A DNA stretch of 64,000 nucleotides from a virus (IMGVR_UViG_3300037466_002980:298811-362810), one strand, 5' to 3'; shown: positions 31,662 to 44,471, counted from the first letter of the stretch. Numbers and translations are program-made. The notes: generated by a model not told the origin, from the letters alone.

Positions 31662-31836
31662 CCCTTTGAGTTACAAATTCATCTAATGTCCAACCATTCG
31701 TCTCTAGAAATTCAGATATACCAATGTGCGTTACTTTCTTATTGTCATCCCAATACCAGTTATAATATAAATTATAAATTTCTACAAAGGTAGGTCTCTT
31801 TAGTTTTAGAAAAAGCCAATCCTCAGAATTTTCCAC
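31627..31836 (-). CDS. MTEEDTF-family small protein
   Basis: 'MENSEDWLFLKLKRPTF...NGWTLDEF'. Confidence 0.5.
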   Translation of the reverse strand: MENSEDWLFLKLKRPTFVEIYNLYYNWYWDDNKKVTHIGISEFLETNGWTLDEFVTQRDAWYERKRQIS

Positions 31837-31853
31837 CAGACGTTATTTCCTTT

Positions 31854-32234
31854 TTATGGTTTGCATTCCAAACCGGTTAAATCAGCATGAGATGTAAAGG
31901 TTCTGTTTTCTGGTATCTCATCCATCCAGTAGGTTCCGTTTGAGACCTTATGGAAATGCATATCATTCCAGGTAATCAAAAACATACCATGCCAGACCCC
32001 ATCATCTTTTTCTCCGGATGTTTGTTCTGGACCATAATCAAGAAAGAAACCCCATGCTTCATCATAACAGATTTTTTGTGCATGTGGATAATTTCTTGCC
32101 ACAGCATCAAACGCATGTGATAAATCCGGCCAGTCGGCTTGAGTTTGAGTAGATGAGGTAGTTTGTGGTGGTTCACTCTTTTTACCACATGCTATTAAGG
32201 AACATGCCAAGAGAAGAATAATTAAATTTTTCAT
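31854..32234 (-). CDS. lipoprotein
   Basis: signal peptide with a lipobox, 'MKNLIILLLACSLIACGKK'. Confidence 0.5.
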   Translation of the reverse strand: MKNLIILLLACSLIACGKKSEPPQTTSSTQTQADWPDLSHAFDAVARNYPHAQKICYDEAWGFFLDYGPEQTSGEKDDGVWHGMFLITWNDMHFHKVSNGTYWMDEIPENRTFTSHADLTGLECKP

Positions 32235-32437
32235 TTTAGATACTTACTGTAATATTCGTTAAAATGTTTATTCATCATTTTATTATATTCATCTGATGTC
32301 CATCCATAATTTTTCATAAATTTATGCCATTCTTCCGTTGGCATATAACCCGTTTCCCTATTCCGTTTTATGACCAACGACATCATTTCAAATATCGTTG
32401 GTTTTCTTAATGCATTGAATGTATCTTCTTCGGTCAT
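32231..32437 (-). CDS. MTEEDTF-family small protein
   Basis: 'MTEEDTFNALRKPTIFEM...YGWTSDEY'. Confidence 0.55.
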   Translation of the reverse strand: MTEEDTFNALRKPTIFEMMSLVIKRNRETGYMPTEEWHKFMKNYGWTSDEYNKMMNKHFNEYYSKYLK

Positions 32438-32613
32438 TATAAACAATCGAGGTAAAATTTCTTTCGTATAAATTCTTCAGTAGTCCAGCCATATTTGTTC
32501 AGAAATTCTTCTAGATCCCGGCGTGCGGTTCCGGTATATTTTCTATACCATATATCATCTATTTCCGAAAATGATAATTTCTTTAATCTTAAGAATGTGT
32601 CGTCTTCAGTCAT
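32437..32613 (-). CDS. MTEEDTF-family small protein, 58 aa (below the cutoff)
   Basis: translated by hand: 'MTEDDTFLRLKKLSFSEI...YGWTTEEF'; ATGACTGA and TAATG junctions. Confidence 0.45.
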   Translation of the reverse strand: MTEDDTFLRLKKLSFSEIDDIWYRKYTGTARRDLEEFLNKYGWTTEEFIRKKFYLDCL

Positions 32614-32812
32614 ATGATCTTATTCTATTATAATAATCATCTTCTACTGCTTGATGGTATTCGGCATAATTCCAGCCGTTTGTTTCTAACAATCGAAAAA
32701 ATTCTTCCTGTCTTGCAGGCCAATCATCTACAAAGTGTTCCTTCGTAACTAATTTCATCATTTCTTGGTATGGTATTCTTCTGAGACGATTAAAGGTGTC
32801 TTTTTCAGTCAT
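32606..32812 (-). CDS. MTEEDTF-family small protein
   Basis: internal start 'MTEKDTFNRLRRIPYQEM...NGWNYAEY'. Confidence 0.55.
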   Translation of the reverse strand: MTEKDTFNRLRRIPYQEMMKLVTKEHFVDDWPARQEEFFRLLETNGWNYAEYHQAVEDDYYNRIRSYD

Positions 32813-32996
32813 AGAATTTTGACCTTCTTCTTTCTCTTTCATCGTCAAATTCATCAACTGTCCAATTACCTTCATTCAGCAATGATCTATAACTTCTATC
32901 ATCGCTCCAATTTCTTGCCCAATCTGTAACCTTCCGATCCATTTCATCAAAAGAAATTCTTTTTAGTTTTCGAATAAGTTCAATTTCTGAGCTCAT
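32805..32996 (-). CDS. MTEEDTF-family small protein
   Basis: 'MSSEIELIRKLKRISFDEM...GNWTVDEF'. Confidence 0.5.
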   Translation of the reverse strand: MSSEIELIRKLKRISFDEMDRKVTDWARNWSDDRSYRSLLNEGNWTVDEFDDERERRRSKFYD

Positions 32997-33044
32997 AGCT
33001 ATATTATATGATTTTGATCATTGGAGGGCAAAGACACCTCAAAA

Positions 33045-33075
33045 GAAAACCCACCTTTTGAGTGGGTTTTCTGGT
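33045..33075 (-). terminator. rho-independent terminator
   Basis: stem AAAACCCAC/GTGGGTTTT followed by a T-run; immediately downstream of the vWA gene. Confidence 0.5.
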
Positions 33076-33091: not shown

Positions 33092-34288
33092 TTATCGACG
33101 ATTTTGCGGGCTATGCGCATCGGGTTCGTACCAGCATGTCATGCCATGCGGTGCGGTAATGTTATGTCTAGCATCGCCGTGAATGACAAACACACTTTCG
33201 CACCAATCCGGATCGCCCCAGCCGTCGCCGGTATAACCGTCAGTAAACATGATGAATCGCTCGGGTTGCAATTCATTGTCTTTCATGTATTGCCAATTCA
33301 CATCAAACGATGTGCCGCCGCCACCATGAATCTCATATGTATCGATGTCGTCGAGATTTTCTGCCGTAAAGCGTTGGTGGTTGTAAACACGAGTATCGAA
33401 ACACCAGACATCCAGGTCGAAGTCGGTAAACTGCTCCATAATGCCTTTCACTTCAGTAAGAAGGTCTCGAAGCATATCGTCCGACATAGAACCCGAACAG
33501 TCAATTGAAACTGCTGCCTTAACTTTTTCTTGATCCTTCTGTCCCGGAAGGTAGAAACCAGCGGATTGCGCCTTACGCGAACAACGCATCCAGGTAAAGT
33601 CATTCTTCAGCATCGATTTCAGGCGCATCTGAAGAATTTCTCGCCAATCCATTTGCGGATCAGTGAGGTCCTTCAACATACGACGCACACCAGCCGGCGT
33701 ATTTCCAGCACCAGCTGCCTTGGCGGCCTGCATCACCGCAGCACGGATCTCATCCGACAGCATACGGCGTTCTTCTTCGGTCATCGGTTCACCCTTGCCA
33801 TCTCCAGGTTCCAGGTGAATATCGAAATCACCAAAGTTGCCAGCATTGGGGTCATCAAGAAGTTTTTCGTAAACTTCTTCTGCGAACATACCCTTGTATT
33901 TCGGATCGAAGCAAGGAGTTACGCCGGATGTCTTGGGATCGGGAAGTTTGCCGATATTGTGTTCGTGCAGTTCCCAATTGATAACAAAGTCTGCCGCTGC
34001 GTTCCACAGTTTCGGCTTACGGCTACCACGACGACTCATGTGGTCATACACGCAGTGTTCCACTTCGTGTGCCACAAGGAATACGGTTTCTGGTTTGGTC
34101 AACTTCAGAATGAAGTTACGGTTGTAGTAGAAGTAACGTCCGTCTGTTGCAGCAGTCGGACACCAATCCTCTTCAGTCGCATCTTTCAGAATAAGACGTG
34201 TTGCCAACGTCCCCCAGAAAGGCTGTTGAAGCAGCAACGAAATACGTGCCCGCGTCAGTTGCTCTTTGGCTTTTTCCTTGTCATCCAT
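33092..34288 (-). CDS. putative HExxH metallopeptidase domain fused to a vWA domain (DUF2201-type partner of MoxR-like ATPases)
   Basis: 'VAHEVEHCVYDH' HExxH motif in the N-terminal half; C-terminal 'VSIDCSGSM' (DxSxS MIDAS motif) typical of vWA; GC-rich island; the plus-strand ORFs on it are antisense. Confidence 0.55.
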   Translation of the reverse strand: MDDKEKAKEQLTRARISLLLQQPFWGTLATRLILKDATEEDWCPTAATDGRYFYYNRNFILKLTKPETVFLVAHEVEHCVYDHMSRRGSRKPKLWNAAADFVINWELHEHNIGKLPDPKTSGVTPCFDPKYKGMFAEEVYEKLLDDPNAGNFGDFDIHLEPGDGKGEPMTEEERRMLSDEIRAAVMQAAKAAGAGNTPAGVRRMLKDLTDPQMDWREILQMRLKSMLKNDFTWMRCSRKAQSAGFYLPGQKDQEKVKAAVSIDCSGSMSDDMLRDLLTEVKGIMEQFTDFDLDVWCFDTRVYNHQRFTAENLDDIDTYEIHGGGGTSFDVNWQYMKDNELQPERFIMFTDGYTGDGWGDPDWCESVFVIHGDARHNITAPHGMTCWYEPDAHSPQNRR

Positions 34289-34303
34289 GTTAATGTTTCC
34301 TGG

Positions 34304-34486
34304 TTAAATGTCATCTGCACAATTTCTCTCACAATCCTCACAGCAATTGCACAACGTATAATCGTTGTGTATTTCTGTGGAAAAAGGACAGGTATGTGGT
34401 GATTGTGCAATTCCGCCACACCTTCTTAAACAATAACCATGCATCAATACCTGCATGGTTTTATCCATCTCATTATCACCTGTCAT
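34304..34486 (-). CDS. Cys-rich small protein
   Basis: 60 aa with 8 Cys ('CNCCEDCERNC'). Confidence 0.4.
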   Translation of the reverse strand: MTGDNEMDKTMQVLMHGYCLRRCGGIAQSPHTCPFSTEIHNDYTLCNCCEDCERNCADDI

Positions 34487-34538
34487 TGTTATTTGTTATG
34501 CCTATAGTGTATTGTAATTTCTTTTTGCAGTCAACAGG

Positions 34539-34715
34539 TTACTTTTGATTTTCCACTTCTCTAATTAATGCTTGTGCCAGATAACAAGAACGTTCAGTCC
34601 CAGCTACCACCAAAGAACCTTCTAACACCCAACCCTGATTTAATAGGTCTGCAACTTTTTTTGAAAAATACGCATCTTGAGTGGTACTTTCGACTATTAC
34701 CTTATATTCTATCAT
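34539..34715 (-). CDS. 58-aa hypothetical protein
   Basis: translated by hand: 'MIEYKVIVESTTQDAYFSKKVADLLNQGWVLEGSLVVAG...'; ATGA overlap with the upstream gene. Confidence 0.4.
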   Translation of the reverse strand: MIEYKVIVESTTQDAYFSKKVADLLNQGWVLEGSLVVAGTERSCYLAQALIREVENQK

Positions 34716-35035
34716 TCCTCACCTTCATATTCTTCTAATGCGGTCCGTAACATTTCCATTCCAATACTCGTACATTCATCTGAATTGCTACCCATAATTA
34801 CGGAGAGCCTAATTGTTAATGGAATAATTATACTTTCGAATAAGATCTCATTAGATTGTAATTTCTCAATGGATTCAATTTCATGATCATATCCAGTTTC
34901 AATTCCATATTTCTTAATTTCTTCTTGACGTATTCTTTCAAGAAGAATAGTACCCCAGCGTCGAAGAACCCAAATAGGACATTCCTCTGCAGTAATATGT
35001 CCATCACCATGTTTAATTACATCAAACAAGCTCAT
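34712..35035 (-). CDS. hypothetical protein of the 'M-S-L-x-x-V-I-K' paralog trio
   Basis: 'MSLFDVIKHGDGHITAEE'. Confidence 0.45.
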   Translation of the reverse strand: MSLFDVIKHGDGHITAEECPIWVLRRWGTILLERIRQEEIKKYGIETGYDHEIESIEKLQSNEILFESIIIPLTIRLSVIMGSNSDECTSIGMEMLRTALEEYEGEE

Positions 35036-35109
35036 TTTAATCCCTCGACGAAAATCCTTCTATTCTTAGTAATCATCTAATAATAGCATACTTTCATAGA
35101 AATATGCGA

Positions 35110-35424
35110 TTATGCTCCGTATTTTACAAGAAAATCCTTCAAAACTTCTTCTAATTTATTTTCAGCATTATTGTTATAAACAGAATAATATAAACTCACC
35201 ATGTGAGAATGCCACATATTTATAGAATGAGCTCTATCAAGAATATAATCCCATAACATTCTTTCTTCAACTTGCTGTGAATAGGAAAGTTTTCCTTTAT
35301 CTTTTCTTTCTAAAATACACCTACTTCCATATTTCAAAAATGATTTATAAAGTGTAAGTGGAAGAATTCTACCGGCGTTACGAAAAGTAACATCAGAATA
35401 TTTAATCACATGAAGTATCGTCAT
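35110..35424 (-). CDS. hypothetical protein of the 'M-S-L-x-x-V-I-K' paralog trio
   Basis: 'MTILHVIKYSDVTF'. Confidence 0.45.
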   Translation of the reverse strand: MTILHVIKYSDVTFRNAGRILPLTLYKSFLKYGSRCILERKDKGKLSYSQQVEERMLWDYILDRAHSINMWHSHMVSLYYSVYNNNAENKLEEVLKDFLVKYGA

Positions 35425-35719
35425 ATTCGTATAGAAATTCTTTAATTAATTCATTAATATAATTCTCAGATAAATTAGTACCATTGGATTGACTGGCTTG
35501 TATAACGTACTTTTCAAAAGCATTATCCAATCTATCTGCTGTGATAGTCAAACCAACTTGGTTATTTTGTGTTTTATAATCAAATTCAAATGATGGATTT
35601 TTTATACGAATCTTTTCGATAAATCTATCCATTATGTAGAATGTTAAATCAAGTGGAAGAATTAATTCGTATTCTGTTACTGATATATTTCCGTATTTGA
35701 TAACATGTAATAAACTCAA
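35402..35719 (-). CDS. hypothetical protein of the 'M-S-L-x-x-V-I-K' paralog trio
   Basis: 'MSLLHVIKYGNISVTEYELILPL'. Confidence 0.45.
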   Translation of the reverse strand: MSLLHVIKYGNISVTEYELILPLDLTFYIMDRFIEKIRIKNPSFEFDYKTQNNQVGLTITADRLDNAFEKYVIQASQSNGTNLSENYINELIKEFLYEYDDTSCD

Positions 35720-35750
35720 TTCTTAATCCCTTATATGTCCATATATTCGA

Positions 35751-35936
35751 TTATAATTTTCTCGTTGCCATTCTCTTACTGTCCAACCATTTATGTGCAA
35801 TTCTATTTCTTTCGCTTGTCCAGATATTATAGGATTTAGGATCACCCTTATATTGATATTTTAATCTCTGAAACTCCGATTCTAAATGTTCAAAGGAACT
35901 CTTCTTTAATCGGTTAAATGTATCATCTTCGTTCAT
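35751..35936 (-). CDS. MTEEDTF-family small protein
   Basis: 'MNEDDTFNRLKKSSFEHL'. Confidence 0.5.
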   Translation of the reverse strand: MNEDDTFNRLKKSSFEHLESEFQRLKYQYKGDPKSYNIWTSERNRIAHKWLDSKRMATRKL

Positions 35937-36135
35937 TTAATGTCTTTTCATAATATTCGTTGAAATGAATAAACAACTGTTCATTATATTCACGACGAGT
36001 CCATCCATTACAACGAAATAGTGAATCCCAATCATAATCTCTCCCGGCATACTTACTATTGATTTCTGAAACTTTAGAAATCATTTCTAAAATCGGAGTT
36101 TTCCTTAAGGCGTTAAATGTATCGTCTTCTGTCAT
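35923..36135 (-). CDS. MTEEDTF-family small protein
   Basis: 'MTEDDTFNALRKTPILEM...NGWTRREY'. Confidence 0.55.
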   Translation of the reverse strand: MTEDDTFNALRKTPILEMISKVSEINSKYAGRDYDWDSLFRCNGWTRREYNEQLFIHFNEYYEKTLNERR

Positions 36136-36143
36136 TTTTCAAC

Positions 36144-36326
36144 TCATAATGAAGATCCACCTTGGTGTATCCAAAGTATGTATTCGCTGCGTTTCCACCC
36201 ATTTGCATTAAGTAGCTCATCAAAATTTCTTTTATCTTTAGAGTTAAGTCTCCAGAGCTTAATTTCGCCAATTAAATGCGGTATAGGAACTTTTTTCAAA
36301 AGACGAATTGTATCCTCTTCCTTCAA
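36144..36326 (-). CDS. MTEEDTF-family small protein
   Basis: 'MKEEDTIRLLKKVPIPHL...NGWKRSEY'. Confidence 0.5.
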   Translation of the reverse strand: MKEEDTIRLLKKVPIPHLIGEIKLWRLNSKDKRNFDELLNANGWKRSEYILWIHQGGSSL

Positions 36327-36559
36327 GATATATCGCCCCTAATCATAAGTGTTTCTTTAGTTCCTTCGACTCTGATTTCTCTAAATGTATATCCATTTTC
36401 TTTCCAGAACTCTTTCCATGTTTTTAACACAATTTCATTTTTGGTCTGAATTGCAATAATACTTACATCTTCTACTTCCTCGGTAAGAGAAAAATAGGAA
36501 TAACTTCCGTGTGATTTCTTAAAATATTTCAATACCAAATAGGTTTCATCAATGCTCAT
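36323..36559 (-). CDS. small protein of the N-terminal-motif type
   Basis: 'MSIDETYLVLKYF...LMIRGDIS'. Confidence 0.45.
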   Translation of the reverse strand: MSIDETYLVLKYFKKSHGSYSYFSLTEEVEDVSIIAIQTKNEIVLKTWKEFWKENGYTFREIRVEGTKETLMIRGDIS

Positions 36560-36753
36560 TTGAAAATTTCCTTATGATCGTCTATCCACACTGCTTGCCA
36601 AAAATCAATTCGATTCCATCCATATCCATTTAAAAATTCTGATTCTGTCAATAAATTTTCGTTGTCACCTTTAATGGTCCATTCTCTATATAATTCTCTC
36701 ATCTTTTCAAGAGAGGGCCTTTTTAATTTTCTAAAGGTATCTTCTTCAGTCAT
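36556..36753 (-). CDS. MTEEDTF-family small protein
   Basis: 'MTEEDTFRKLKRPSLEKM...YGWNRIDF'. Confidence 0.55.
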   Translation of the reverse strand: MTEEDTFRKLKRPSLEKMRELYREWTIKGDNENLLTESEFLNGYGWNRIDFWQAVWIDDHKEIFK

Positions 36754-36919
36754 TCCAACCTAACCTTTTTAATGCTTCTTCGACTATTTCATCATATGTC
36801 CAGCCTGTTCCATTTAGTGCTGAAATTCTATCTAGAATGTTTGTTGGCCTATTGAATACAGTTCTCGTTTCCTCATATGGCATCTTCTTCAATTTATTAA
36901 ATGTTTCTTCTTCACTCAT
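36746..36919 (-). CDS. MTEEDTF-family small protein, 57 aa (below the cutoff)
   Basis: translated by hand: 'MSEEETFNKLKKMPYEET...TGWTYDEI'; ATGA and ATGACTGA junctions. Confidence 0.45.
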   Translation of the reverse strand: MSEEETFNKLKKMPYEETRTVFNRPTNILDRISALNGTGWTYDEIVEEALKRLGWND

Positions 36920-37155
36920 ATCAACGAATCGTCCCTATAAACAAGTATTTGATTACCTAATGCTGACATCGAATAAGGAATATCACGTCGATGCCATGAT
37001 AATTTCCACGATAGTAATGGAGATATTTCTTTGAAGTTATTCGGATCATAAAGAAAAGCCATTACCTCATCATCAGTCGCAAAAATTGTGACCGAAAAAT
37101 GAGTTTCAATACGATATTTCAAACTTAAAAGCGTAATTCTTTCATCATCTATCAT
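36916..37155 (-). CDS. family C small protein with the motif at the N-terminus
   Basis: 'MIDDERITLLSLKYR...ILVYRDDSLI'. Confidence 0.5.
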   Translation of the reverse strand: MIDDERITLLSLKYRIETHFSVTIFATDDEVMAFLYDPNNFKEISPLLSWKLSWHRRDIPYSMSALGNQILVYRDDSLI

Positions 37156-37382
37156 AATGCATCATTTCTAACCACATACACATAATTGCCAATCTTATGA
37201 AGGGAATATTTACGTTCGCTTAGTTTAAATCGATATTGCCATGATCTGACTATACTAACGTGATTAGATCTTACGGCCATTGTTTCAAAACCCTTTTCGG
37301 TTTCCTTATAATAAGAATCGAAATATCTTCCAATTCTTTTATTAAATTTTAATTCTAATAATATTTCTATTTCATCATTCAT
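37152..37382 (-). CDS. family C small protein
   Basis: 'MNDEIEILLELKFN...YVYVVRNDAL'. Confidence 0.55.
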   Translation of the reverse strand: MNDEIEILLELKFNKRIGRYFDSYYKETEKGFETMAVRSNHVSIVRSWQYRFKLSERKYSLHKIGNYVYVVRNDAL

Positions 37383-37603
37383 AGAGCGTCTTCTCGAACC
37401 AATAGTATAACATCGTTTTCATCGATTCGTCTATAATCAATGTGATGTGCGTCCCAGTATGTTTCCCAACCACCGGCTAGATATTTATAATCCTCGTTTT
37501 TAATTAAAACCGACATCGTTAAGTTATTATCGACAAATATTTCATACGTATAATAATTTCTGTGTTGATATTTTAATGACAAAATTATTAACAATTCATT
37601 CAT
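37379..37603 (-). CDS. family C small protein
   Basis: 'MNELLIILSLKYQ...VILLVREDAL'. Confidence 0.55.
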   Translation of the reverse strand: MNELLIILSLKYQHRNYYTYEIFVDNNLTMSVLIKNEDYKYLAGGWETYWDAHHIDYRRIDENDVILLVREDAL

Positions 37604-37824
37604 AATGCATCCATTCTAACTACGAGTATCCTATCATTATCGATAAAAGTTTTTGCTGGAATACCTGCATCTTTCCAAATTGTTAATATTGTTTTAGTTG
37701 ATCTATCATTAATATTAGTCCAGATTGCAACTGTAAAGTTATTCTGATTATAGAATGCTATACAATCAGGATAATACTTATTCATCCTATATTTCAATTT
37801 TAGAATTGTTAGTATTTCGTTCAT
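37600..37824 (-). CDS. family C small protein
   Basis: 'MNEILTILKLKYR...RILVVRMDAL'. Confidence 0.55.
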   Translation of the reverse strand: MNEILTILKLKYRMNKYYPDCIAFYNQNNFTVAIWTNINDRSTKTILTIWKDAGIPAKTFIDNDRILVVRMDAL

Positions 37825-38038
37825 AACGAATTAGAAAAGTATAACTGCCAATCACTTCTTCTGAATAAGGATATAATCGATTATAGTCAAAGGAATTCTT
37901 CCAGCGCTCTAACATCGTGGGATTGTTGCTATGAATCCTGACTGCCCAAACTCTTGTATCTTCATCAAAATATACACTGCCGTAAGGCCTTTCTACCTCT
38001 TTATATTTTAATCCGAGAAAGGTTTCAATTTCAGACAT
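37787..38038 (-). CDS. family C small protein
   Basis: 'MSEIETFLGLKYK...YTFLIRYERN'. Confidence 0.5.
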   Translation of the reverse strand: MSEIETFLGLKYKEVERPYGSVYFDEDTRVWAVRIHSNNPTMLERWKNSFDYNRLYPYSEEVIGSYTFLIRYERNTNNSKIEI

Positions 38039-38267
38039 AATCTGTTCTTACTAACCAATGATATTTTTTATTTCCGAAAAACTTCCATGTCCTGTGATAA
38101 TAACAACTTTTCACTTTATTTAATTCACCTATGGAATCTGTCTTATAAAATATTAATTCACCCTTCTCATTCCGAATATAAGAATAAAAGACTCCCTTCT
38201 CTATTCCTTCTTCATGATCCGGATATTTCAATCTCAGATAAGTTTCGAGTTCATGTATGTTGGACAT
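38031..38267 (-). CDS. family C small protein
   Basis: 'MSNIHELETYLRLKYP...YHWLVRTDYV'. Confidence 0.5.
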   Translation of the reverse strand: MSNIHELETYLRLKYPDHEEGIEKGVFYSYIRNEKGELIFYKTDSIGELNKVKSCYYHRTWKFFGNKKYHWLVRTDYV

Positions 38268-38505
38268 ATTCTTTTCTTATTAGAAATATAAATCCATCCC
38301 GATTAATTTCCGAAAACATATTCATGTTGACAGGATTATTCCTCTTAACACGTTCAATCAATTCTCTTGATGCTGTTTTATAGAATACCAGTCTAAATTT
38401 TTCATCCAGAATATAAAAATATTCTGCATATGGAAAAGAAACAGTATAACAACCCGAATAACAATTGTTATATTTTAATCGAAGAAAAGCTTCAATTTCA
38501 TTCAT
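38251..38505 (-). CDS. family C small protein
   Basis: 'MNEIEAFLRLKYN...FIFLIRKEYV'. Confidence 0.5.
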   Translation of the reverse strand: MNEIEAFLRLKYNNCYSGCYTVSFPYAEYFYILDEKFRLVFYKTASRELIERVKRNNPVNMNMFSEINRDGFIFLIRKEYVQHT

Positions 38506-38735
38506 AATGCATATTCTTTTATGATAAGTATTCTGTTTTTCTTCTTATATCTCTTATATGGAACAGAAATTTTATTCCAATGTACTTCCCATCTGCGAAT
38601 CAAGTCTAAATTATCCTCGCATTTATTTTTGGTTAATATACCAATTAATTGTTCATCAGAATTATCAATTCTTATAAAGTCTTTATATTCTCTAAAATTA
38701 TATTTTAGTTTCAATAGAATTAGGATTTCATTCAT
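38502..38735 (-). CDS. family C small protein
   Basis: 'MNEILILLKLKYN...RILIIKEYAL'. Confidence 0.55.
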   Translation of the reverse strand: MNEILILLKLKYNFREYKDFIRIDNSDEQLIGILTKNKCEDNLDLIRRWEVHWNKISVPYKRYKKKNRILIIKEYAL

Positions 38736-38971
38736 AACACATCATTTCTAACTAAAATAATATATTCATGTGTCCTATATTCAGTGAATGAAATATTTTC
38801 TAAATGCCATAAATTTGTCCAGTCTGACAATTTTTTCAAATCATATATCTTAGCATATAATACCTGGCCGGTTTCAGCATTACGAAAATATTCATATGAA
38901 CGCTTAGGTGTAGAAGGTATTTCCATCATACCTTTATATTTCAACGCAATCAAAGTTTCAATCTCATGCAT
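38732..38971 (-). CDS. family C small protein
   Basis: 'MHEIETLIALKYK...YIILVRNDVL'. Confidence 0.55.
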   Translation of the reverse strand: MHEIETLIALKYKGMMEIPSTPKRSYEYFRNAETGQVLYAKIYDLKKLSDWTNLWHLENISFTEYRTHEYIILVRNDVL

Positions 38972-39206
38972 GATCTGTTCTTACCAGGTAATAGAATTCA
39001 TCCTGTGTATATTCTTCAAACTGAAATTTTTCATCTGACCATATTTCTTTAACAGTATCGGATAATATCTTGCTAGTGGTTTTATGAAAAATCAAATCAA
39101 CCTCATCATCCCATATAATCCAAGTTTTTGATCCATTGGTATGGTTATACCCTTGATCGGAATATTTCATCCTTAAAAAAGATTCTATTTCATTAATATC
39201 AGACAT
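38964..39206 (-). CDS. family C small protein
   Basis: 'MSDINEIESFLRMKYS...YYLVRTDHA'. Confidence 0.55.
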   Translation of the reverse strand: MSDINEIESFLRMKYSDQGYNHTNGSKTWIIWDDEVDLIFHKTTSKILSDTVKEIWSDEKFQFEEYTQDEFYYLVRTDHA

Positions 39207-39447
39207 GATCTATTCTTACTAGATAGTAGAATTCATCCTTTTTATATTCTTTAAATTGAATGTCTACATTTGCTAACCAGGTTCCTCTAACAGAATCGAT
39301 TAATTTTTCATTTGTGCTCTTGAAGAAAATTGGAACAGATTTACAATCCCATATAATCCAAGTTTTCGATCCAAAAAGTTCAGAACATGAGTGATAAGGA
39401 TGTTTCATCCTTAAAAAGAATTCGAGTTCTTCAATATTTTCTGTCAT
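39199..39447 (-). CDS. family C small protein
   Basis: 'MTENIEELEFFLRMKHP...YYLVRIDHV'. Confidence 0.55.
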   Translation of the reverse strand: MTENIEELEFFLRMKHPYHSCSELFGSKTWIIWDCKSVPIFFKSTNEKLIDSVRGTWLANVDIQFKEYKKDEFYYLVRIDHV

Positions 39448-39462
39448 TTTTCTTCAAACTAC

Positions 39463-39735
39463 CTAACACATTAATTTAACAAGAATCATTAATTCATCTG
39501 CCAATTTATGTAATTCATCACTGCTTAATTTTTCAGATGGATTATAAATAAATCTTGGTTCATCATATCCTCGATTGAATCTAATTAGATATTTTTTGCT
39601 AACTGTTACATATGATAGGTCATTCGTAACCGATACTATATCATAGTTAGTAACCAATCCAGTTGAATAATATCTATTCCTATAAAGAACATCTACATCA
39701 TCTGATTTTCTTTCATTCCAATCTTTTATTATCAT
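39463..39735 (-). CDS. MIIKDW-family small protein (family D)
   Basis: 'MIIKDWNERK...KLADELMILVKLMC'. Confidence 0.55.
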   Translation of the reverse strand: MIIKDWNERKSDDVDVLYRNRYYSTGLVTNYDIVSVTNDLSYVTVSKKYLIRFNRGYDEPRFIYNPSEKLSSDELHKLADELMILVKLMC

Positions 39736-40022
39736 ATTTCGTCCATTAATTTAACAATAATATATATTTCCTCTGCAAATTTTTTTATTTCTCTCTCTTC
39801 TTTTATGGAAGCAGGAATAATATAGATATATTTAATAGCATCATATGAATTAATAAATCTGATTATTTTTCTTGGTCCGAAAAAATCTAATTCGGTTATT
39901 GGTTCATTGACACTTTTAATTTCATATCCGACTATTGGAAAAATACTTTTAGAACGAACTCTAAATAAGATTCCATCATCCTCTTTTAAATATGTTCTAT
40001 CCTCCCAATCTTTTATTATCAT
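39732..40022 (-). CDS. MIIKDW-family small protein (family D)
   Basis: 'MIIKDWEDRT...KFAEEIYIIVKLMDEI'. Confidence 0.55.
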   Translation of the reverse strand: MIIKDWEDRTYLKEDDGILFRVRSKSIFPIVGYEIKSVNEPITELDFFGPRKIIRFINSYDAIKYIYIIPASIKEEREIKKFAEEIYIIVKLMDEI

Positions 40023-40025
40023 ATT

Positions 40026-40316
40026 TCAGCCCATTAGTTTAATAATAACAAATAGTTCTTTTAGGTACTTGTTTAATTTTTCATTATCATCTAAATAGAA
40101 TGGAAGAATATAGATATATTTAACACCGTTTACTGAACTAAAAAATCTAACTATTTTTCGTTGTCCATTCATATCCAGCGTAGAAATTGTTCTATTGACA
40201 GTTCTAATTTCATAATTGTCTATTCTTACTGGATAATTTTCCTTAGAAACTTTGAATAGAGTTTCATCTTTTTCTTCCACAGAGTTTGTTCTATCCTCCC
40301 AATCTTTTATTATCAT
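40026..40316 (-). CDS. MIIKDW-family small protein (family D)
   Basis: 'MIIKDWEDRT...YLKELFVIIKLMG'. Confidence 0.55.
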   Translation of the reverse strand: MIIKDWEDRTNSVEEKDETLFKVSKENYPVRIDNYEIRTVNRTISTLDMNGQRKIVRFFSSVNGVKYIYILPFYLDDNEKLNKYLKELFVIIKLMG

Positions 40317-40319
40317 ATT

Positions 40320-40619
40320 TCAACCCATTAATTTAATGAAAATCATTAATTCATCTGCTAATTTGTTGCTTTCTTCGGAGGATATGGATTTAGGAAGTAC
40401 ATAGATATATTTTATATGATATTTAGACATGAATCTAATTACAAATCTAGTTGATGTTTCTGATAAACGACCAATGTTGTTTTCATCGACCGAAATTATA
40501 TCGTAACCTGTGACAGGATGTTTTTCCCATAACGAATTTAATTCATGAACCCTATATAGGGCATGATCCTCAAAATAATCGTTTTTCCTGGTGTACCAAT
40601 CCTGTACATTCATTTTCAA
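40320..40619 (-). CDS. MIIKDW-family small protein (family D)
   Basis: '...KLADELMIFIKLMG'. Confidence 0.55.
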   Translation of the reverse strand: MKMNVQDWYTRKNDYFEDHALYRVHELNSLWEKHPVTGYDIISVDENNIGRLSETSTRFVIRFMSKYHIKYIYVLPKSISSEESNKLADELMIFIKLMG

Positions 40620-40897
40620 CTCATTAATTTAATAATAATAAAAAGTTCTTCTGCCAATCTATTCATTTCTTCACATGACATAAATTTGGGAAGAGTATAG
40701 ATATATCTCACAGCCGCAAATTCATCTAAGAATCTAATTATGAATCTATCAGACACTGTTGATAGATAAGAAAGTGATGGTTCGTCTACTCTTATCACAT
40801 CATATTTTACAGGTGCATGGATACCAAGAAAGACTTGATAAAGAACATGCTCCTCGCAATGAGTTCTATCTCTTTTATTCCAATCCTTCACAACCAT
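40616..40897 (-). CDS. MIIKDW-family small protein (family D)
   Basis: 'MVVKDWNKRD...RLAEELFIIIKLMS'. Confidence 0.55.
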   Translation of the reverse strand: MVVKDWNKRDRTHCEEHVLYQVFLGIHAPVKYDVIRVDEPSLSYLSTVSDRFIIRFLDEFAAVRYIYTLPKFMSCEEMNRLAEELFIIIKLMS

Positions 40898-40982
40898 CAG
40901 ATCACCTCATATATCTTATTGTATTATAAATCCAATGAGTTAGTCAATTGACAGAGTTATCAAAATTCTATATATTGTTTCA

Positions 40983-41948
40983 ATGAAAAATATGAAATTA
41001 CATCAATGTCAAAATTCCGAATGTCAGAATATAGCATTAAAGGACAGATATGGAAATTATAAAAGGTACTGTTCTGAGGAATGTCGGAATGCTACGACTA
41101 AACTAAAATACAAAGACACTTATTCTAGGAAAGACATGGTTGCTATACTTAAAAAACGCGAAAAAACCAATATGTCTAAATACGACAAGGCCAACGTAGC
41201 ACAGACAGATCAAGTACGCGAGACTCTTCGTAAAACTACTACAGCCACAATTGATATCCGTTTACAGAAAACTAAAGAAACGAATATGCGTAATTATGGA
41301 GTTGAAAGTACGAATTCTCTACCAGAGATTAAAGAGAAGAAAAAGAAAACTTTTCAAGAAAGGTACGGTGTTGACCATCAACTTCAAATACCAGAGATAG
41401 CTTCCAAGGTTTCTGAAAAGAATTCAGAAAATGCACAAGAGAGATTGGCTGTTGCCGCCATTACTAAGGAAGAGAGGTATGGTGATAAGAATTATAATAA
41501 TAGGGAGAAGTACGTTGAAACCTGTTTAGAGAAATTTGGAGTGGAAAATCCATCACAAGATCCTGGCGTACATCAGAAGAAGCTCGAAAGCGATTATCGA
41601 TCTAAGGAATATATCTTCCCTTCTGGTAGAAGAGTAATAGTTCAAGGACACGAACCACAGGGAATTAACTTATTATTGAAATCTTATAAGGAAGAAGATC
41701 TCATGATTGGAATTACAGAAGTTCCCAGAATTAAATACGGAAATGGAAAAGGAAGAGGTGCATATTATTTTCCCGATATCTATATTCCAAAGGAAAATCT
41801 AATAATAGAAGTCAAGTCCCAACATACCTATAATGATAATACACCAAAACATCATCAGAAGGCAAGGGCGTGTATCGAATTAGGATATAAATTTAAATTT
41901 TTGGTTATCGAAAAGAATGGTTCATATTATTATTTAGATATTACATAA
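40983..41948 (+). CDS. zinc-finger protein with tandem ~30-aa 'xRYGVxxxxQxPEIxxK' repeats and a C-terminal PD-(D/E)xK-like nuclease motif; possibly a free-standing endonuclease
   Basis: N-terminal 'CQNSECQ...CSEECRN'; three or more 'RNYGVESTNSLPEIKEK' / 'ERYGVDHQLQIPEIASK' repeats; C-terminal 'YFPDIYIPKENLIIEVKSQ'; sole plus-strand gene between minus-strand arrays. Confidence 0.5.
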   Translation: MKNMKLHQCQNSECQNIALKDRYGNYKRYCSEECRNATTKLKYKDTYSRKDMVAILKKREKTNMSKYDKANVAQTDQVRETLRKTTTATIDIRLQKTKETNMRNYGVESTNSLPEIKEKKKKTFQERYGVDHQLQIPEIASKVSEKNSENAQERLAVAAITKEERYGDKNYNNREKYVETCLEKFGVENPSQDPGVHQKKLESDYRSKEYIFPSGRRVIVQGHEPQGINLLLKSYKEEDLMIGITEVPRIKYGNGKGRGAYYFPDIYIPKENLIIEVKSQHTYNDNTPKHHQKARACIELGYKFKFLVIEKNGSYYYLDIT

Positions 41949-41950
41949 CA

Positions 41951-41976
41951 AAAACCGCCCGAAGGCGGTTTTTTGG
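41951..41976 (+). terminator. bidirectional rho-independent terminator between convergent genes
   Basis: AAAACCGCC-CGAA-GGCGGTTTTTT. Confidence 0.65.
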
Positions 41977-42004
41977 TTGACAATTGTAGCAATTTCGTGC
42001 TACA
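41975..42004 (+). promoter_or_regulatory. perfect 9-bp inverted repeat ATTGTAGCA-N6-TGCTACAAT overlapping a sigma70-like TTGACA-N18-TACAAT
   Basis: read directly from the sequence; it points antisense into the AAA+ gene, so function is unknown (operator, antisense promoter or second hairpin). Confidence 0.3.
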
Positions 42005-42018
42005 ATAATAGGTTCCCG

Positions 42019-43230
42019 TCAATCTTCGAGAATATACTTCCCGAACTTGTCATGGAAGGCCTTGAACGTCTTCATCTCACGGTGGTTGATCGGAAGTGCG
42101 TAATCACGGAGGGCCGTCTTCGCACCGAGCACGATCATTTCCGTCTGGAAGTTGTCCATCATGTACTGGAAGAAGAAGTCCACGCACTTGTGCCAATCGG
42201 ACATCGTGAACTTGTCATCCTTGTCGTTCGCCTTCGTACGACCCAGCCATTCCTGCAGCGTGTAGCACATGGAGATGGTGAGCGAGTACATGGCGCTCAG
42301 GTCCTTGACGTTCAGCTTCGTTTCCTTGCCCGTCAGCACATCTTCCGGCTTCGGCATCTTTGCCGCCACCTTCCGGTGTTGCGCGAACTCGGTTGCGAGA
42401 CCTTCACCAACCGTGCCGGCCACAAGTGCCGTGTTCATCGATTCGGGAAGTTCGTCCGTGATCAGCTGCGAAACGAACACCCAGGACCGCGGAGTTGCGA
42501 ACGCCTTGTCCGGGCTCTTCGGATCGAAGTTGAACAGCTTCTGCTTGTGATGGGAAAGGAAGCCCACCACGTCAGCGTGAACGCGAGCCATGATGGCCCA
42601 CTTCTGCCAGTCGTCGAAGTTAGACGTCATCTCGATGTGAACGAGACGGTTTGCCAACGGACTGGGCATACGGTAGGTAACACCCTTGTCACTGTCTCGG
42701 TTGCCGGCGCACACCATCGACACGCCATCCGGCAACTTGTATTCGCCGACGCGACGGTTCAGGATCAGCTGGTAAGCCGCGGCCTGCACGCTCGGAGGAG
42801 CAGCGTTGATTTCATCCAGGAACAGAATTGCTTTGCTGAATTCTTGTGCAATCTTCAGCGTTTCCAGCTTCTGGGTTTTTTCGTGGATCTCGTCTTCGTC
42901 CTTGCCTTCGATGGCCAGCGAGAGTGCCTTCTTGGCACGATTGATATCACGTTCAGTGATGGTTTGCGGCAGGTCCGCCGGTTGAGCCCAACGCATCGTC
43001 TGCGTGGCGGGATCATAGAACGGAATGCCCTTGATGTCGGTCGGTTCCAACAGAAGCAGACGCATGTCGATAACGGGGCGCTTTTGTTCCGCACCGATTT
43101 CAGCAATCAGTTCGGACTTGCCAATGCCGGGGGGTCCCCAAATCATTGCGGGGCGTCCAACCCGCATACAACGTTGCAGAAGTGTTTTTACGTCACGGGG
43201 ACGTTCTGCGCGATGAGTGTCAATAGCCAT
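42019..43230 (-). CDS. MoxR-like AAA+ ATPase of the AAA_5 / CbbQ / CobS-like clade
   Basis: Walker A 'GPPGIGKS', Walker B 'ILFLDEIN' and sensor 'VCAGNRD'; AGGAG Shine-Dalgarno; GC-rich island; the 442-aa plus-strand ORF across it is antisense. Confidence 0.65.
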   Translation of the reverse strand: MAIDTHRAERPRDVKTLLQRCMRVGRPAMIWGPPGIGKSELIAEIGAEQKRPVIDMRLLLLEPTDIKGIPFYDPATQTMRWAQPADLPQTITERDINRAKKALSLAIEGKDEDEIHEKTQKLETLKIAQEFSKAILFLDEINAAPPSVQAAAYQLILNRRVGEYKLPDGVSMVCAGNRDSDKGVTYRMPSPLANRLVHIEMTSNFDDWQKWAIMARVHADVVGFLSHHKQKLFNFDPKSPDKAFATPRSWVFVSQLITDELPESMNTALVAGTVGEGLATEFAQHRKVAAKMPKPEDVLTGKETKLNVKDLSAMYSLTISMCYTLQEWLGRTKANDKDDKFTMSDWHKCVDFFFQYMMDNFQTEMIVLGAKTALRDYALPINHREMKTFKAFHDKFGKYILED

Positions 43231-43347
43231 CTAAGTGTTCTCCTTGGTGGGGTTAAAAAGTTTGTGTATATGTATTGTGTCTTATACCAGCGTGTCTGTC
43301 AATAGGTTAAGAGTAAATTGTCTAATATCTTCCCTCTTTGTTTTCAA

Positions 43348-43653
43348 TTATTGTTCATCCTCATCAGAATAATATTGAAATTTTAGTTTCCACATTAAAA
43401 ATCCTTCATCAGAATTGAATTTTACGAAATTCCTACCAAAATCGTTATCTAAACAGTTTTGAATAACAAAATCACAATCAAAATTTGATAATTCGATAAT
43501 TGCACATTCATCAAATTGAAGATTATATTCTTGACCGCGTTTACCGCTGAGTTGAGCTATATTGGTTTGACGAATGTATCTTGCAAAATTCGTCCAACAT
43601 TTATAATCAGAATGATCTATTGATTGATGTTTGTATATATCAAAACTTTTCAT
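43348..43653 (-). CDS. family E (NWW array) small protein with a C-terminal motif
   Basis: 'DEGFLMWKLKFQYYSDEDEQ'. Confidence 0.5.
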   Translation of the reverse strand: MKSFDIYKHQSIDHSDYKCWTNFARYIRQTNIAQLSGKRGQEYNLQFDECAIIELSNFDCDFVIQNCLDNDFGRNFVKFNSDEGFLMWKLKFQYYSDEDEQ

Positions 43654-43655
43654 AA

Positions 43656-43946
43656 TTATTTTAGGTGTTCTGATACAGGATTGAAATTGTGATTAAATCT
43701 GATAAGGAATGCAGTTCGATCTTCTTCAGTCTCAAATATTACACTTGCAGGCGAATCGTCGGAAATGTCTCCTATGAATTTTGCATGAAATATTGCCAAT
43801 ACATCGAAAATACAATTGTCTCTGTATGTACCATTTTCTCTATTAGTTTCTGTTATAAAATTTATTTCAACGTAGTCGATAAAATTTTTCCACCAATTTG
43901 GACATTGATCGAATTCACCATTTAATTCTAAACTATATTCATTCAT
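43656..43946 (-). CDS. family E small protein
   Basis: 'CPNWWKNFIDY...FETEEDRTAFLIRFNHNF'. Confidence 0.55.
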   Translation of the reverse strand: MNEYSLELNGEFDQCPNWWKNFIDYVEINFITETNRENGTYRDNCIFDVLAIFHAKFIGDISDDSPASVIFETEEDRTAFLIRFNHNFNPVSEHLK

Positions 43947-44212
43947 TTTATTATTCTTTCACTATAAAATTTATCTGGAAATTTTAATTTAAATATCATA
44001 TAATCTTCGTTGGATTTAAACCAAATTCTATATCCTAATCCAGGATATACTCCAAAATAGAAATTATCTTCTATATTCTTATGTAAATATTCAAGAAAAA
44101 AATCGCTGAAGAAACCAATACCGAAAAGTGCAGAGGAGTATCGAGATGATAGGAAGATATGTTCTGAATCGGTCCTATAATATTTCTGTTTTAGAAAAAA
44201 CTTATCTTCCAT
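43943..44212 (-). CDS. family E small protein
   Basis: 'FKSNEDYMIFKLKFPDKF'. Confidence 0.5.
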   Translation of the reverse strand: MEDKFFLKQKYYRTDSEHIFLSSRYSSALFGIGFFSDFFLEYLHKNIEDNFYFGVYPGLGYRIWFKSNEDYMIFKLKFPDKFYSERIIK

Positions 44213-44471
44213 TATATTTTAATTTGAAGGCTAGATAATCTTCCTCGGTTTCGAAAATTATGTAATATTTGTTTCCACCCTCAATGATATGTTCACAATG
44301 ATATTTCTTTAATTCTATATCTCGATAATACTCATACTCTTTCATATAATCTCTATTTGATCTCAGAAATAGATTATGTTCTTTCTGAATATAACGATTG
44401 AAATTGTCCCAGAGATCAATTAATGTATCACCTACCGGGAATAAATTTATCTTTACTTTGTTACCAGCCAT
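44202..44471 (-). CDS. family E small protein
   Basis: 'FETEEDYLAFKLKYNGR'. Confidence 0.55.
   Translation of the reverse strand: MAGNKVKINLFPVGDTLIDLWDNFNRYIQKEHNLFLRSNRDYMKEYEYYRDIELKKYHCEHIIEGGNKYYIIFETEEDYLAFKLKYNGR

Follow-up and report, generated by a model that had tools for sequence, protein, structure and literature searches.

A MoxR-class AAA+ ATPase and a zincin-vWA protein encoded on either side of a 7.7-kb spacer in an uncultured jumbo phage

The window analysed here, a stretch of 64,000 nucleotides (IMGVR_UViG_3300037466_002980:298811-362810), comes from the genome of an uncultured jumbo phage that is distantly related to PA5oct. Two genes on one of its strands are the subject here: the first encodes a MoxR-class AAA+ ATPase, and the second, further downstream, a protein that combines a zincin domain with a vWA domain. 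Both open reading frames are intact and have the coordinates given in the original prediction. These genes, their putative expression signals and the contents of the spacer between them are listed in Table 1.

Table 1. Features of the ATPase-vWA locus, with positions counted in the window
Feature	Position	Strand	Basis or remark
Zincin (DUF2201_N) + vWA (DUF2201) protein, 398 aa	33092..34288	-	Pfam, invariant motifs, fold
Terminator-like hairpin AAAACCCAC-TCAAAAG-GTGGGTTTT then CTTTTGAG, 9-bp, T-tract	33070..33038	-	22 nt past vWA stop codon
Cys/His-rich ORF, 60 aa (…HTCPF…EI…LCNCCxxCxxxC…DI)	34304..34486	-	Ends 15 nt before vWA start
Promoter-like TTGACT-17-TACACT	34534..34506	-	Upstream of Cys-rich ORF; consensus match
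DUF1737 small protein, 58 aa	34539..34715	-	Pfam DUF1737 6e-7; PHROG 21831 8e-9
Nine further small ORFs	34712..36919	-	ORF calling, paralogue comparison
Two singletons	34712..35035 and 36323..36559	-	Paralogue comparison
One paralogue pair	35110..35719	-	Paralogue comparison
Five ORFs of a 30-member family dispersed over the window	35751..36326 and 36556..36919	-	Paralogue comparison
Eleven small ORFs in tandem (74-84 aa) from two linked families of paralogues, identities 22-49%	36916..39447	-	Paralogue comparison
Five paralogues in tandem, each a small ORF of 90-99 aa, mutual identity 27-48%	39463..40897	-	Paralogue comparison
Promoter-like TTGACT-18-TACAAT	40947..40918	-	Precedes 5-ORF array; consensus match
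DUF7487 homing-endonuclease-like gene, free-standing, 321 aa	40983..41948	+	Convergent with ATPase; Pfam, PHROG
Bidirectional intrinsic-terminator-like hairpin AAAACCGCC-TTCG-GGCGGTTTT, T-tracts on both strands	41943..41972	.	Read in sequence and detected computationally
MoxR/NorQ/CbbQ-class AAA+ ATPase, 403 aa	42019..43230	-	Pfam, PHROG, fold matches
Putative Shine-Dalgarno AAGGAG	43245..43240	-	9 nt before ATPase ATG; consensus match
Promoter-like TTGACA-17-CACAAT	43302..43274	-	Ahead of ATPase; consensus match

The product of the upstream gene matches PHROG 1297 ('ATPase', 1.9e-96) and, weakly but over threshold, the Pfam families AAA (29.7 bits), AAA_3 (28.5 bits, cut-off 27) and AAA_5 (25.5 bits, cut-off 22). 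It has the complete AAA+ core, namely Walker A (GPPGIGKS, residues 32-39), Walker B (LFLDE, residues 136-140, with D139-E140), sensor-1 N177 and the sensor-2 arginine in an (S/T)PR motif (T246-P247-R248), and residues G32, P34, G35, K38, S39, D139, E140, N177, P247 and R248 are invariant among 17 diverse homologues. The ATPase was placed in the MoxR class by its nearest kin in sequence and structure, which fall within the group of MoxR, NorQ, CbbQ, midasin and dynein-type AAA proteins, and by its genomic link to a vWA-domain partner. Its profile matches midasin AAA domains (4e-14), and the first 16 PDB ranks in a Foldseek search with its AF2 model (pLDDT 78) are all NorQ or CbbQ, with moderate TM-scores of 0.52-0.59 on target. 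In the predicted structure, strands 69-73 and 78-82 lie between Walker A and Walker B, and a loop of residues 158-170, where pLDDT is only 54-66, precedes the sensor-1 strand; this arrangement is consistent with the beta-hairpin helix-2 insert and the pre-sensor-1 insert of the MoxR clade. The ATPase also has a subclade-specific two-helix insertion at residues ~90-131.

The downstream gene had been predicted to encode a DUF2201-type protein with HExxH and vWA domains, and this was borne out by HMM searches. DUF2201_N (PF13203), the family that goes with the HExxH motif, matches residues 8-249 (2.2e-37, 129.6 bits, cut-off 23.2), and the VWA-like DUF2201 family (PF09967), which goes with the MIDAS, matches at 1.7e-11 (44.8 bits, cut-off 26.4). 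The HEVEH motif (residues 74-78) is part of an HExxH(x4)H arrangement (H74, E75, H78, H83), and DCSGS (residues 263-267) is part of a complete MIDAS (D263, S265, S267, T326, D350); neither set varies among 17 homologues, the most distant of which are 32% identical. In its fold, the C-terminal part resembles integrin I / vWA domains. As the AF2 model of this protein is mediocre (pLDDT 65), the N-terminal zincin call rests on Pfam, on the invariant HExxH(x4)H and on marginal PDB profile matches (~1e-3), in which the minimal zincin MJ1213 and peptidases of the M48/HtpX type are weakly similar to its profile. PHROG 1314 and many GenBank records name such proteins 'HNH endonuclease'. We rejected this name, since the 398-residue protein has no HNH match in Pfam; the label on vWA orthologues is an annotation artefact carried by PHROG 1314. 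A true HNH gene, which does match HNH families, lies in the same window at 28910..29509.

The original prediction called the ATPase CbbQ/MoxR/CobS-like and likened the pair to phage cobS/cobT. The MoxR part of this call agrees with the AAA_5 match and the NorQ/CbbQ folds, and the CobS part does not hold. Were the pair a CobS/CobT-type cobaltochelatase, it would be an auxiliary metabolic module as in T4-like cyanophages. An AAA+ ATPase and a vWA protein do occur together in both systems, and the ATPase has a weak match to the CobS family PHROG 249 (1.6e-6). However, this match is limited to residues 12-56, the Walker A region, and searches gave no CobS_N, CbbQ_C or CobT match in Pfam and no match in NCBIfam; the best families are instead PHROG 1297, PHROG 1314 and N4 gp24/gp25. 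Moreover, the vWA partner begins with a zincin domain of the HExxH type, and CobT is not known to have one. As full-length similarity to CobS and CobT was absent in the Pfam, PHROG and NCBIfam searches, we rejected this identity and regard it as improbable in the extreme.

The two genes had been placed about 8 kb apart, and the spacer between them (34289..42018) measures 7,730 bp. It holds 27 non-overlapping small ORFs on the minus strand, which form at least four paralogue families plus singletons, and one plus-strand gene for a protein of 321 residues, rather than the two paralogue arrays of roughly 70 small ORFs described in the original prediction; the figure of ~70 is roughly the six-frame ORF count and not a gene count. 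The plus-strand gene matches Pfam DUF7487 (2.2e-49) and PHROG homing endonuclease families (6e-15 and 2e-8). Homologues of it, 30-54% identical, lie directly past the ATPase in either orientation in other loci (L010, L014, L016/L019, L017, L024, L027 and L071). The 5-ORF array has no homologue in 86 related loci and the 11-ORF array none in related loci, and neither has a Pfam or PHROG family; altogether, homologues in related loci are lacking for 25 of the 27 small ORFs. The DUF1737 protein and the Cys-rich 60-residue ORF, which the original prediction did not mention, are conserved residents of the spacer. Homologues of the former are found inside the ATPase-vWA spacer of L085/L086, L012, L006, L007-9, L034, L037 and L071. 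In 16 related loci, homologues of the latter that are 41-55% identical lie immediately 5' of the vWA gene, and Pfam and PHROG searches assign this ORF to no known family. The terminator-like hairpin 3' of the ATPase stop codon (CCGCC-TTCG-GGCGG) lies between the convergent ATPase and homing-endonuclease genes, and 14 of 27 relatives, PA5oct among them, have a similar hairpin 12-55 nt past the stop codon of the ATPase.

Comparison with relatives, the synteny check suggested in the original prediction, pointed to an ancestral arrangement with a short spacer. Of 81 related loci, 69 have the vWA gene 3' of the ATPase gene and on its strand; in the remaining 12, no more than 1.1 kb of sequence is available downstream, and all 69 loci with enough DNA show this order. 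The gap measures between 24 and 8,972 bp, and its median over 58 distinct loci is 724 bp. Only one locus has a gap larger than that of the window, gaps of 3-9 kb are found in other genomes that keep both genes, and in the nearest relatives (82% ATPase identity) the gap is 0.71-0.74 kb. The separation of 7.7 kb is, in other words, an ordinary variant at the extreme end of the gap range. The flanking genes are collinear with those of relatives (RtcB…AAA…ATPase…vWA…HNH…peptidase S11). Since the order is conserved, the gaps are short in the closest relatives and the flanks are kept, the two genes must have descended together and been parted by insertion and array expansion. As to the predicted split by array expansion, the conserved order, the short gaps of the closest relatives and the 25 small ORFs without homologues support a split by insertion, and array expansion by itself does not account for it, as the homing endonuclease, which the original prediction had missed, also contributes.

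The original prediction alternatively offered that the two genes were acquired independently, each as a GC-rich island with its own expression signals, so that their co-presence would be a coincidence. The compositional observation itself is correct: GC is 0.555 in the ATPase gene and 0.494 in the vWA gene against ~0.33 in the window, and GC3 reaches 0.71 and 0.51, the median of the window being 0.28. Putative expression signals are also there, with a promoter-like site, a Shine-Dalgarno site (AAGGAG before the ATPase) and a terminator-like hairpin separately for each gene. Against independent acquisition, order, strand and flanking synteny are as in all relatives, and the ATPase and the vWA protein are equally diverged from each relative (e.g. 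82%/75-78% and 53%/50%). In 54 of 58 loci the ATPase has a higher GC3 than the genes around it, and PA5oct is one of these (~50% identity; 0.68 against 0.22); further conserved genes of the window are GC-rich too (49170..50210 and 54426..55628). As the GC3 excess is common to the lineage, it points to a long-standing codon-usage trait and not to recent transfer; judged by composition, the 'GC-rich islands' fit a lineage-wide codon trait and give no evidence for recent import. With collinear flanks, matching divergence and a lineage-wide GC3 excess, we rejected independent acquisition, which has hardly any probability left. The two proteins also match similar numbers of phage records (836 for the ATPase and 794 for the vWA protein), with nearly identical genus counts.

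We therefore consider it very probable that the pair are vertically inherited orthologues of a conserved phage module of MoxR-class AAA+ ATPase and zincin-vWA protein, already known from N4 and many jumbo phages, which has been spread apart here by insertion. In the ancestral state, the ATPase gene was followed by a terminator, a short spacer and then the vWA gene on the same strand, and in the clade of the window phage the spacer also carries the DUF1737 protein and the Cys-rich mini-protein. The operon boundary after the ATPase terminator tolerates insertions, as indicated by the terminator 3' of the ATPase in many relatives and by the homing endonuclease that recurs there in both orientations. 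Here, insertion of the DUF7487 homing endonuclease and of tandem paralogue arrays, with ~25 small ORFs specific to the lineage, extended the spacer to 7.7 kb and left both flanking genes undamaged. As the array paralogues are just 22-49% identical, it is conceivable that the arrays did not expand recently but were imported ready-made, either out of another part of this genome or out of a different phage.

It may be asked whether the separation has uncoupled the two genes functionally, or whether one partner is decaying, so that the ATPase acts alone or with another partner. The 7.7-kb spacer, the strong terminator past the ATPase and the separate promoter-like sites would be in line with this, and a second AAA protein is encoded nearby (47738..48838). 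The two genes are probably in different transcription units here, so co-regulation of the pair is not assured. However, neither ORF is truncated and neither protein has lost a catalytic residue, and the ATPase (82%) and the vWA gene (75-80%) are among the most conserved genes of the region. Both are also retained across the 3-9 kb gaps of other genomes. Moreover, as the terminator between the genes is also found in short-gap relatives, the two were already transcribed separately in the ancestor, an arrangement that allows them to function together. We consider uncoupling very unlikely.

How an intact pair may work is suggested by NorQ/NorD and CbbQ/CbbO. By analogy with these systems, we infer that the two proteins form a complex, in which a hexameric ATPase ring would engage the vWA domain of its partner and ATP hydrolysis would remodel either that partner or a client docked on its MIDAS. 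The attached zincin, whose metallopeptidase activity is predicted from sequence, would then process a specific phage or host protein, in the middle infection phase or during assembly. For jumbo phages, the MoxR AAA+/metallopeptidase-vWA pair has been proposed to be a chaperone-cochaperone system with peptidolytic processing (Iyer et al. 2021, PMC7824862). Rather than the virion assembly or processing envisaged by these authors, the intact module could serve host takeover, nucleic-acid metabolism or counter-defence early or midway in infection. N4 gp24/gp25 are middle genes, located beside the dCTP deaminase gene and ahead of the replication genes. In the window, the pair shares its strand and region with arrays of small early-type ORFs, RtcB, a macro-domain homologue, the second AAA gene and HNH genes, and structural genes are not among its neighbours; the high GC3 would suggest host-type codon expression, the phage tRNAs in the window decoding the AT-ending codons UUA and AGA. 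On the other hand, the ATPase of PA5oct bears the tag 'ESI-MS/MS' in RefSeq, which means that it was detected in the virion preparation. In addition, the only viral MoxR-vWA pair with experimental data, p618 (MoxR) and p892 (vWA) of Acidianus two-tailed virus (ATV), acts in tail development, where the experiments support a chaperone role (cited in PMC7824862). An early or middle role is therefore a tentative proposal that we think somewhat improbable, albeit a serious one.

Among known systems, the module of N4 provides the reference. The window ATPase is homologous to N4 gp24 (28% identity, 2e-45 by BLASTP) and the vWA protein to gp25 (27%, 9e-27), including HExxH and DxSxS, and gp24 (ATPase) and gp25 (vWFA domain protein) follow each other on one strand in the same order as in the window. 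In N4 they are adjacent middle genes, core in N4-like phages (Schitoviridae) and conserved wherever the family occurs. Homology, order and strand are thus shared with the window, and adjacency is not: 28 genes lie between the window genes, and the gap is 168 bp in N4 against 7,730 bp. Adjacency is not universal in the N4-type family either, given the range of 24 to 8,972 bp. The window ATPase differs from gp24 by an extra insertion of ~40 residues forming two helices, and N4 is a 70-kb podovirus whereas the window genome is that of a jumbo phage.

Atu_ph07, one of the 'group 2.2' jumbo phages, has a directly homologous pair of identical architecture (ASV44729.1 and ASV44728.2; ATPase 35%, 5e-67; vWA protein 37%, 8e-71), but its genes are adjacent, ~175 bp apart. 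The closest cultured relative is PA5oct, with 53% identity for the ATPase (PQE65_gp149) and 50% for the vWA protein (PQE65_gp144, 'HNH endonuclease'). It resembles the window in order, strand, a GC-rich gene in an AT-rich genome, the terminator past the ATPase and a homing endonuclease in the spacer. Its spacer, however, spans 2.9 kb and holds 4 genes, where the window has 28 genes in 7.7 kb; its annotation shows neither paralogue arrays nor a Cys-rich ORF, and tblastn found no homologue of the latter.

NorQ/NorD and CbbQ/CbbO, like the window pair, consist of a MoxR AAA+ ATPase and a vWA/MIDAS partner. Sequence identity of the window ATPase to NorQ/CbbQ is only 12-16%, and its long extra C-terminal helical domain (~260-403) extends beyond the coverage by the 250-residue NorQ/CbbQ. 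CbbO functions in Rubisco activation, and to our knowledge neither NorD nor CbbO has a zincin domain. According to PMC13036017, the VWA domain of NorD puts a finger into the NorQ pore, and the role of NorD is metal insertion. Likened by description, ATV p618/p892 is a viral MoxR-vWA pair as in the window, but it lacks the peptidase domain and belongs to an archaeal virus. CobS/CobT of cyanophages is likewise a phage-borne pair of AAA+ and vWA proteins, yet of a different family.

The two genes lie where the original prediction had placed them, both on the minus strand, and encode proteins of 403 aa (the ATPase) and 398 aa (the vWA protein). That the first is a MoxR-type AAA_5 ATPase, as proposed, is supported by Pfam matches to AAA, AAA_3 and AAA_5, which are above threshold though weak, and by PHROG 1297 ("ATPase") at 1.9e-96. 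A profile from 17 diverse homologues matched the AAA domains of midasin at 4e-14, and the 16 best PDB matches to the AF2 model (pLDDT 78) by Foldseek are all NorQ or CbbQ, both ATPases of the MoxR family that cooperate with a vWA protein. The Walker A, Walker B, N177 and TPR motif are unchanged across 17 homologues. The comparison with phage CobS/CobT made in the original prediction did not hold, since the CobS PHROG matches the Walker A region only. At residues ~90-131, between the helix-2 hairpin and Walker B, the model has a ~40-aa two-helix insertion (pLDDT ~90), which is present in a subclade of ~400-aa ATPases and missing in ~364-aa relatives and PA5oct, the closest cultured relative; phage Phosso has a shorter insert at this site. 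The public JGI gene call for the identical ATPase (P0001) starts at Met29, directly before Walker A, and gives 375 aa. This start removes a conserved helix at the N-terminus (RPRDVKTLL…); the 403-aa reading, which has AAGGAG ahead of its start, agrees better with the alignment.

The expected DUF2201 homology of the partner was found by Pfam, with DUF2201_N at residues 8-249 (2.2e-37) and VWA-like DUF2201 at residues 259-382 (1.7e-11). Both the zincin residues (H74, E75, H78, H83) and the complete MIDAS (D263, S265, S267, T326, D350) are unchanged in 17 homologues, down to 32% identity. The C-terminal domain of the model has a fold like integrin I and vWA domains by Foldseek, and for the N-terminal part the profile has weak similarity to the minimal zincin MJ1213 and to peptidases of the M48/HtpX type. 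Whole-model Foldseek is dominated by the vWA domain, with a spurious full-length TROVE/Ro60 alignment (TM 0.2) and nothing on the zincin domain. Single-sequence phmmer against PDB gave only marginal matches for the ATPase (midasin and VCP) and no match for the vWA protein, so profiles are needed for both; an NCBIfam search returned nothing significant for either. The vWA protein also matches PHROG 1314 (2.6e-104), a family labelled "HNH endonuclease", and its homologues are widely named 'HNH endonuclease' or 'homing endonuclease' (e.g. NC_071039 PQE65_gp144, NC_008720 gp25). Since no HNH domain is detectable in it by Pfam, the name in PHROG 1314 and many GenBank records is a propagated mis-annotation, which our analysis corrects.

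How the two genes came to lie apart was addressed by synteny in related phages. Among 81 loci (2 from isolates and 79 from IMG/VR), 69 carry the vWA gene downstream of the ATPase and on its strand; in the remaining 12, the downstream sequence is 1.1 kb or shorter. Across 58 distinct loci the gap measures 24 to 8,972 bp (median 724 bp), and a single locus exceeds the 7,730 bp of the window. The nearest relatives, on 344-kb and 304-kb contigs with 82% ATPase identity, have just 0.71-0.74 kb between the two genes, with one or two small ORFs in it. They are collinear with the window through RtcB, the 366-aa AAA protein, a 216-aa protein, the ATPase, the vWA gene, an HNH gene, a 251-aa protein and a peptidase S11, and small-ORF arrays inflate each interval of this block in the window. 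The shared order and strand, the short gaps in the nearest relatives, the collinear flanks and the absence of 25 of the 27 minus-strand spacer ORFs from all 86 related loci indicate that the pair was inherited as a unit and then separated by insertion. The alternative that the two genes were acquired independently is rejected. The first of the two alternatives in the original prediction, a pair split by array expansion, thus stands as to the split by insertion, but arrays are not its sole cause, as a homing endonuclease gene was also inserted. In locus L028 of one relative (10001..19491), a 7.2-kb spacer holds the RtcB ligase and a 400-aa PHROG-11908 gene; as both are upstream of the ATPase in the window, this long gap reflects local rearrangement and not array growth.

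The spacer had been described as two paralogue arrays of roughly 70 small ORFs, which is an overcount. It holds 27 non-overlapping minus-strand ORFs, among which are at least four families, whose paralogues are just 22-49% identical, together with singletons, and one plus-strand gene for a 321-aa DUF7487 homing-endonuclease-like protein. A tblastn search of 86 related loci with the 27 ORFs recovered just the two closest to the vWA gene, namely a DUF1737 gene and a Cys/His-rich 60-aa ORF. When ten ORFs of the spacer and its flanks were scanned with Pfam and PHROG, DUF1737 was the one credible match; a match to VMAP-M14 ('vWA-MoxR associated protein') was dismissed as chance (E=0.0096, 16 bits against a cut-off of 27).

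Features of the window discussed in the text
Feature	Coordinates	Strand
Basic Lys/Ala-rich ORF, 129 aa	4503..4892	minus
30-member small-protein family, six clusters	10628..13201, 30340..32875, 35751..36919, 53762..54360, 56420..58330	minus
tRNA-Leu(TAA)	14360..14451	minus
16-member small-protein family	15335..17547, 43348..45941	
tRNA-Arg(TCT)	21439..21515	minus
vWA gene (DUF2201_N zincin and vWA)	33092..34288	minus
Cys/His-rich 60-aa ORF, spacer	34304..34486	minus
Promoter-like site	34534..34506	
DUF1737 gene, spacer	34539..34715	minus
One paralogue pair, spacer	35110..35719	minus
Five members of the 30-member family, which is dispersed across the window	spacer	minus
ORF with chance VMAP-M14 match, spacer	36323..36559	minus
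Paralogue array, 11 genes, spacer	36916..39447	minus
Paralogue family, 5 genes, spacer	39463..40897	minus
Promoter-like site ahead of the spacer arrays	40947..40918	
MoxR-type ATPase gene	42019..43230	minus
AAA/STAND-like ATPase gene, 366 aa	47738..48838	minus

Expression signals were confirmed at both genes. Ahead of the ATPase lie a promoter-like site and AAGGAG, and behind it a perfect CCGCC/GGCGG hairpin with T-tracts; after the vWA gene comes a hairpin of 9 bp with a T-tract. The window shares a GC-rich hairpin with a T-tract, 12-55 nt past the ATPase stop, with 14 of the 27 relatives examined under a strict criterion, PA5oct and a Rak2-like phage among them. This suggests that the ATPase closes a transcription unit and that insertions do no harm in the slot behind it, at the boundary between operons. 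Seven other distinct loci have DUF7487 homologues in exactly this slot, in either orientation, and the 2.9-kb spacer of PA5oct has a different homing endonuclease, which fits repeated invasion by free-standing homing endonucleases beside a highly conserved gene. Just three weak terminator-like matches occur on the array strand before the vWA hairpin. Judging from these sequence signals, the vWA gene may close a unit of ~7.9 kb, or may be served by the promoter-like site close upstream of it.

The GC contrast of the two genes (0.555 for the ATPase and 0.494 for the vWA gene, against ~0.33 for the window) was confirmed, and GC3 is 0.71 and 0.51 against a window median of 0.28. However, the idea that such GC-rich islands are footprints of recent transfer was rejected. 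In 54 of 58 loci the GC3 of the ATPase is above the median for its neighbouring ORFs (mean +0.15; 0.68 against 0.22 in PA5oct), the excess being missing in the distant Rak2-like group only, and further conserved genes of the window are also GC-rich. High GC3 is a long-standing feature of codon usage in conserved, probably well-expressed genes of AT-rich genomes; expression level, host codon matching or something else may be its cause. The two window tRNAs decode UUA and AGA; such codons ending in A are typical of AT-rich phages whose hosts have a higher GC content. The ORF for the basic Lys/Ala-rich protein, whose tail is of low complexity, exceeds all others of the window in GC (GC 0.64, GC3 0.74). 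PHROG gave no match for it, tblastn no homologue in the phage collection and Rfam nothing on either strand; its product may be a histone-like or DNA-binding protein.

Other genes of the window are noted here. Both small-protein families are tightly packed and nearly all on the minus strand; proteins of the larger are ~60-90 aa, and tested representatives from them had no credible match to a known family. The 366-aa ATPase (Pfam AAA 6.7e-9; NACHT and nSTAND3 near threshold) is kept in relatives and lies 4.5 kb upstream of the MoxR-type gene.

Between the end of the Cys/His-rich ORF (HTCPF…LCNCCxxCxxxC…DI) and the start of the vWA gene are 15 nt. The ORF matched no Pfam or PHROG family, and in 16 related loci its homologues, at 41-55% identity, directly precede the vWA gene; this mini-protein is always, and DUF1737 often, immediately upstream of the zincin-vWA gene in this clade. 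It could be a candidate zinc-binding third component, and with or without DUF1737 the module may be a three- or four-part system here, in which these proteins could be a metal-binding client, cofactor or regulator loaded or processed by the ATPase and vWA-peptidase. The terminator-bounded slot may likewise be a lineage-wide cradle for new small-gene arrays, seeded by homing endonucleases. We consider it unlikely that the multi-part module, the array cradle and selection on host codons all hold together; if they did, the very high GC3 of the ATPase would reflect selection for host-codon expression before the phage tRNAs act.

Both genes are intact, strongly conserved and co-inherited, with complete catalytic residues. 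By analogy with NorQ/NorD (PMC13036017), CbbQ/CbbO and the general MoxR-vWA literature, a hexameric ATPase ring would engage the vWA domain of the partner, ATP hydrolysis would remodel the partner or a MIDAS-bound client, and remodelling could enable cleavage by the fused zincin. Iyer et al. 2021 (PMC7824862) proposed a role in virion assembly and processing, by analogy with the MoxR-vWA pair of Acidianus two-tailed virus. Alternatively, the pair may have an early or middle, non-structural role, as suggested by the middle-gene class of N4 gp24/gp25 and the non-structural gene neighbourhood in the window; however, the ATPase is marked as MS-detected in the PA5oct RefSeq record, and the published proposal is virion-protein maturation. 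The PA5oct omics paper uses a gp numbering unlike that of RefSeq, and its 'gp149' is the portal. A paper on the END nuclease that mentions PA5oct has no bearing on the pair.

That a conserved module (N4 gp24/gp25; the jumbo-phage pair) tolerates physical and transcriptional separation is by itself of little weight, but synteny annotation demanding adjacency would miss such a pair. As it is the core pair of two large phage groups, the clade-specific Cys-rich neighbour and the anomaly in codon usage are modest leads.

A 10-kb region used as megablast query matched none of 50,697 phage records, so there is no close cultured relative at the nucleotide level. At the protein level, PA5oct-like Pseudomonas jumbo phages are the nearest isolates (53% identity for the ATPase and 50% for the vWA protein), followed by Phosso, Atu_ph07, SCTP-2 and Rak2/121Q-like phages, and 836 and 794 phage records were matched, with near-identical genus counts. 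Escherichia phage N4 gp24 and gp25, neighbouring middle genes that belong to the core set of all N4-like phages, are homologous to the two proteins (BLASTP 2e-45 and 9e-27), and a MoxR AAA+ ATPase with a vWA protein carrying an N-terminal metallopeptidase was already described in group 2.2 jumbo phages by Iyer et al. 2021. The window thus adds a new, uncultured jumbo phage to the carriers of a known module, and its spacer is unusually long but not unique.
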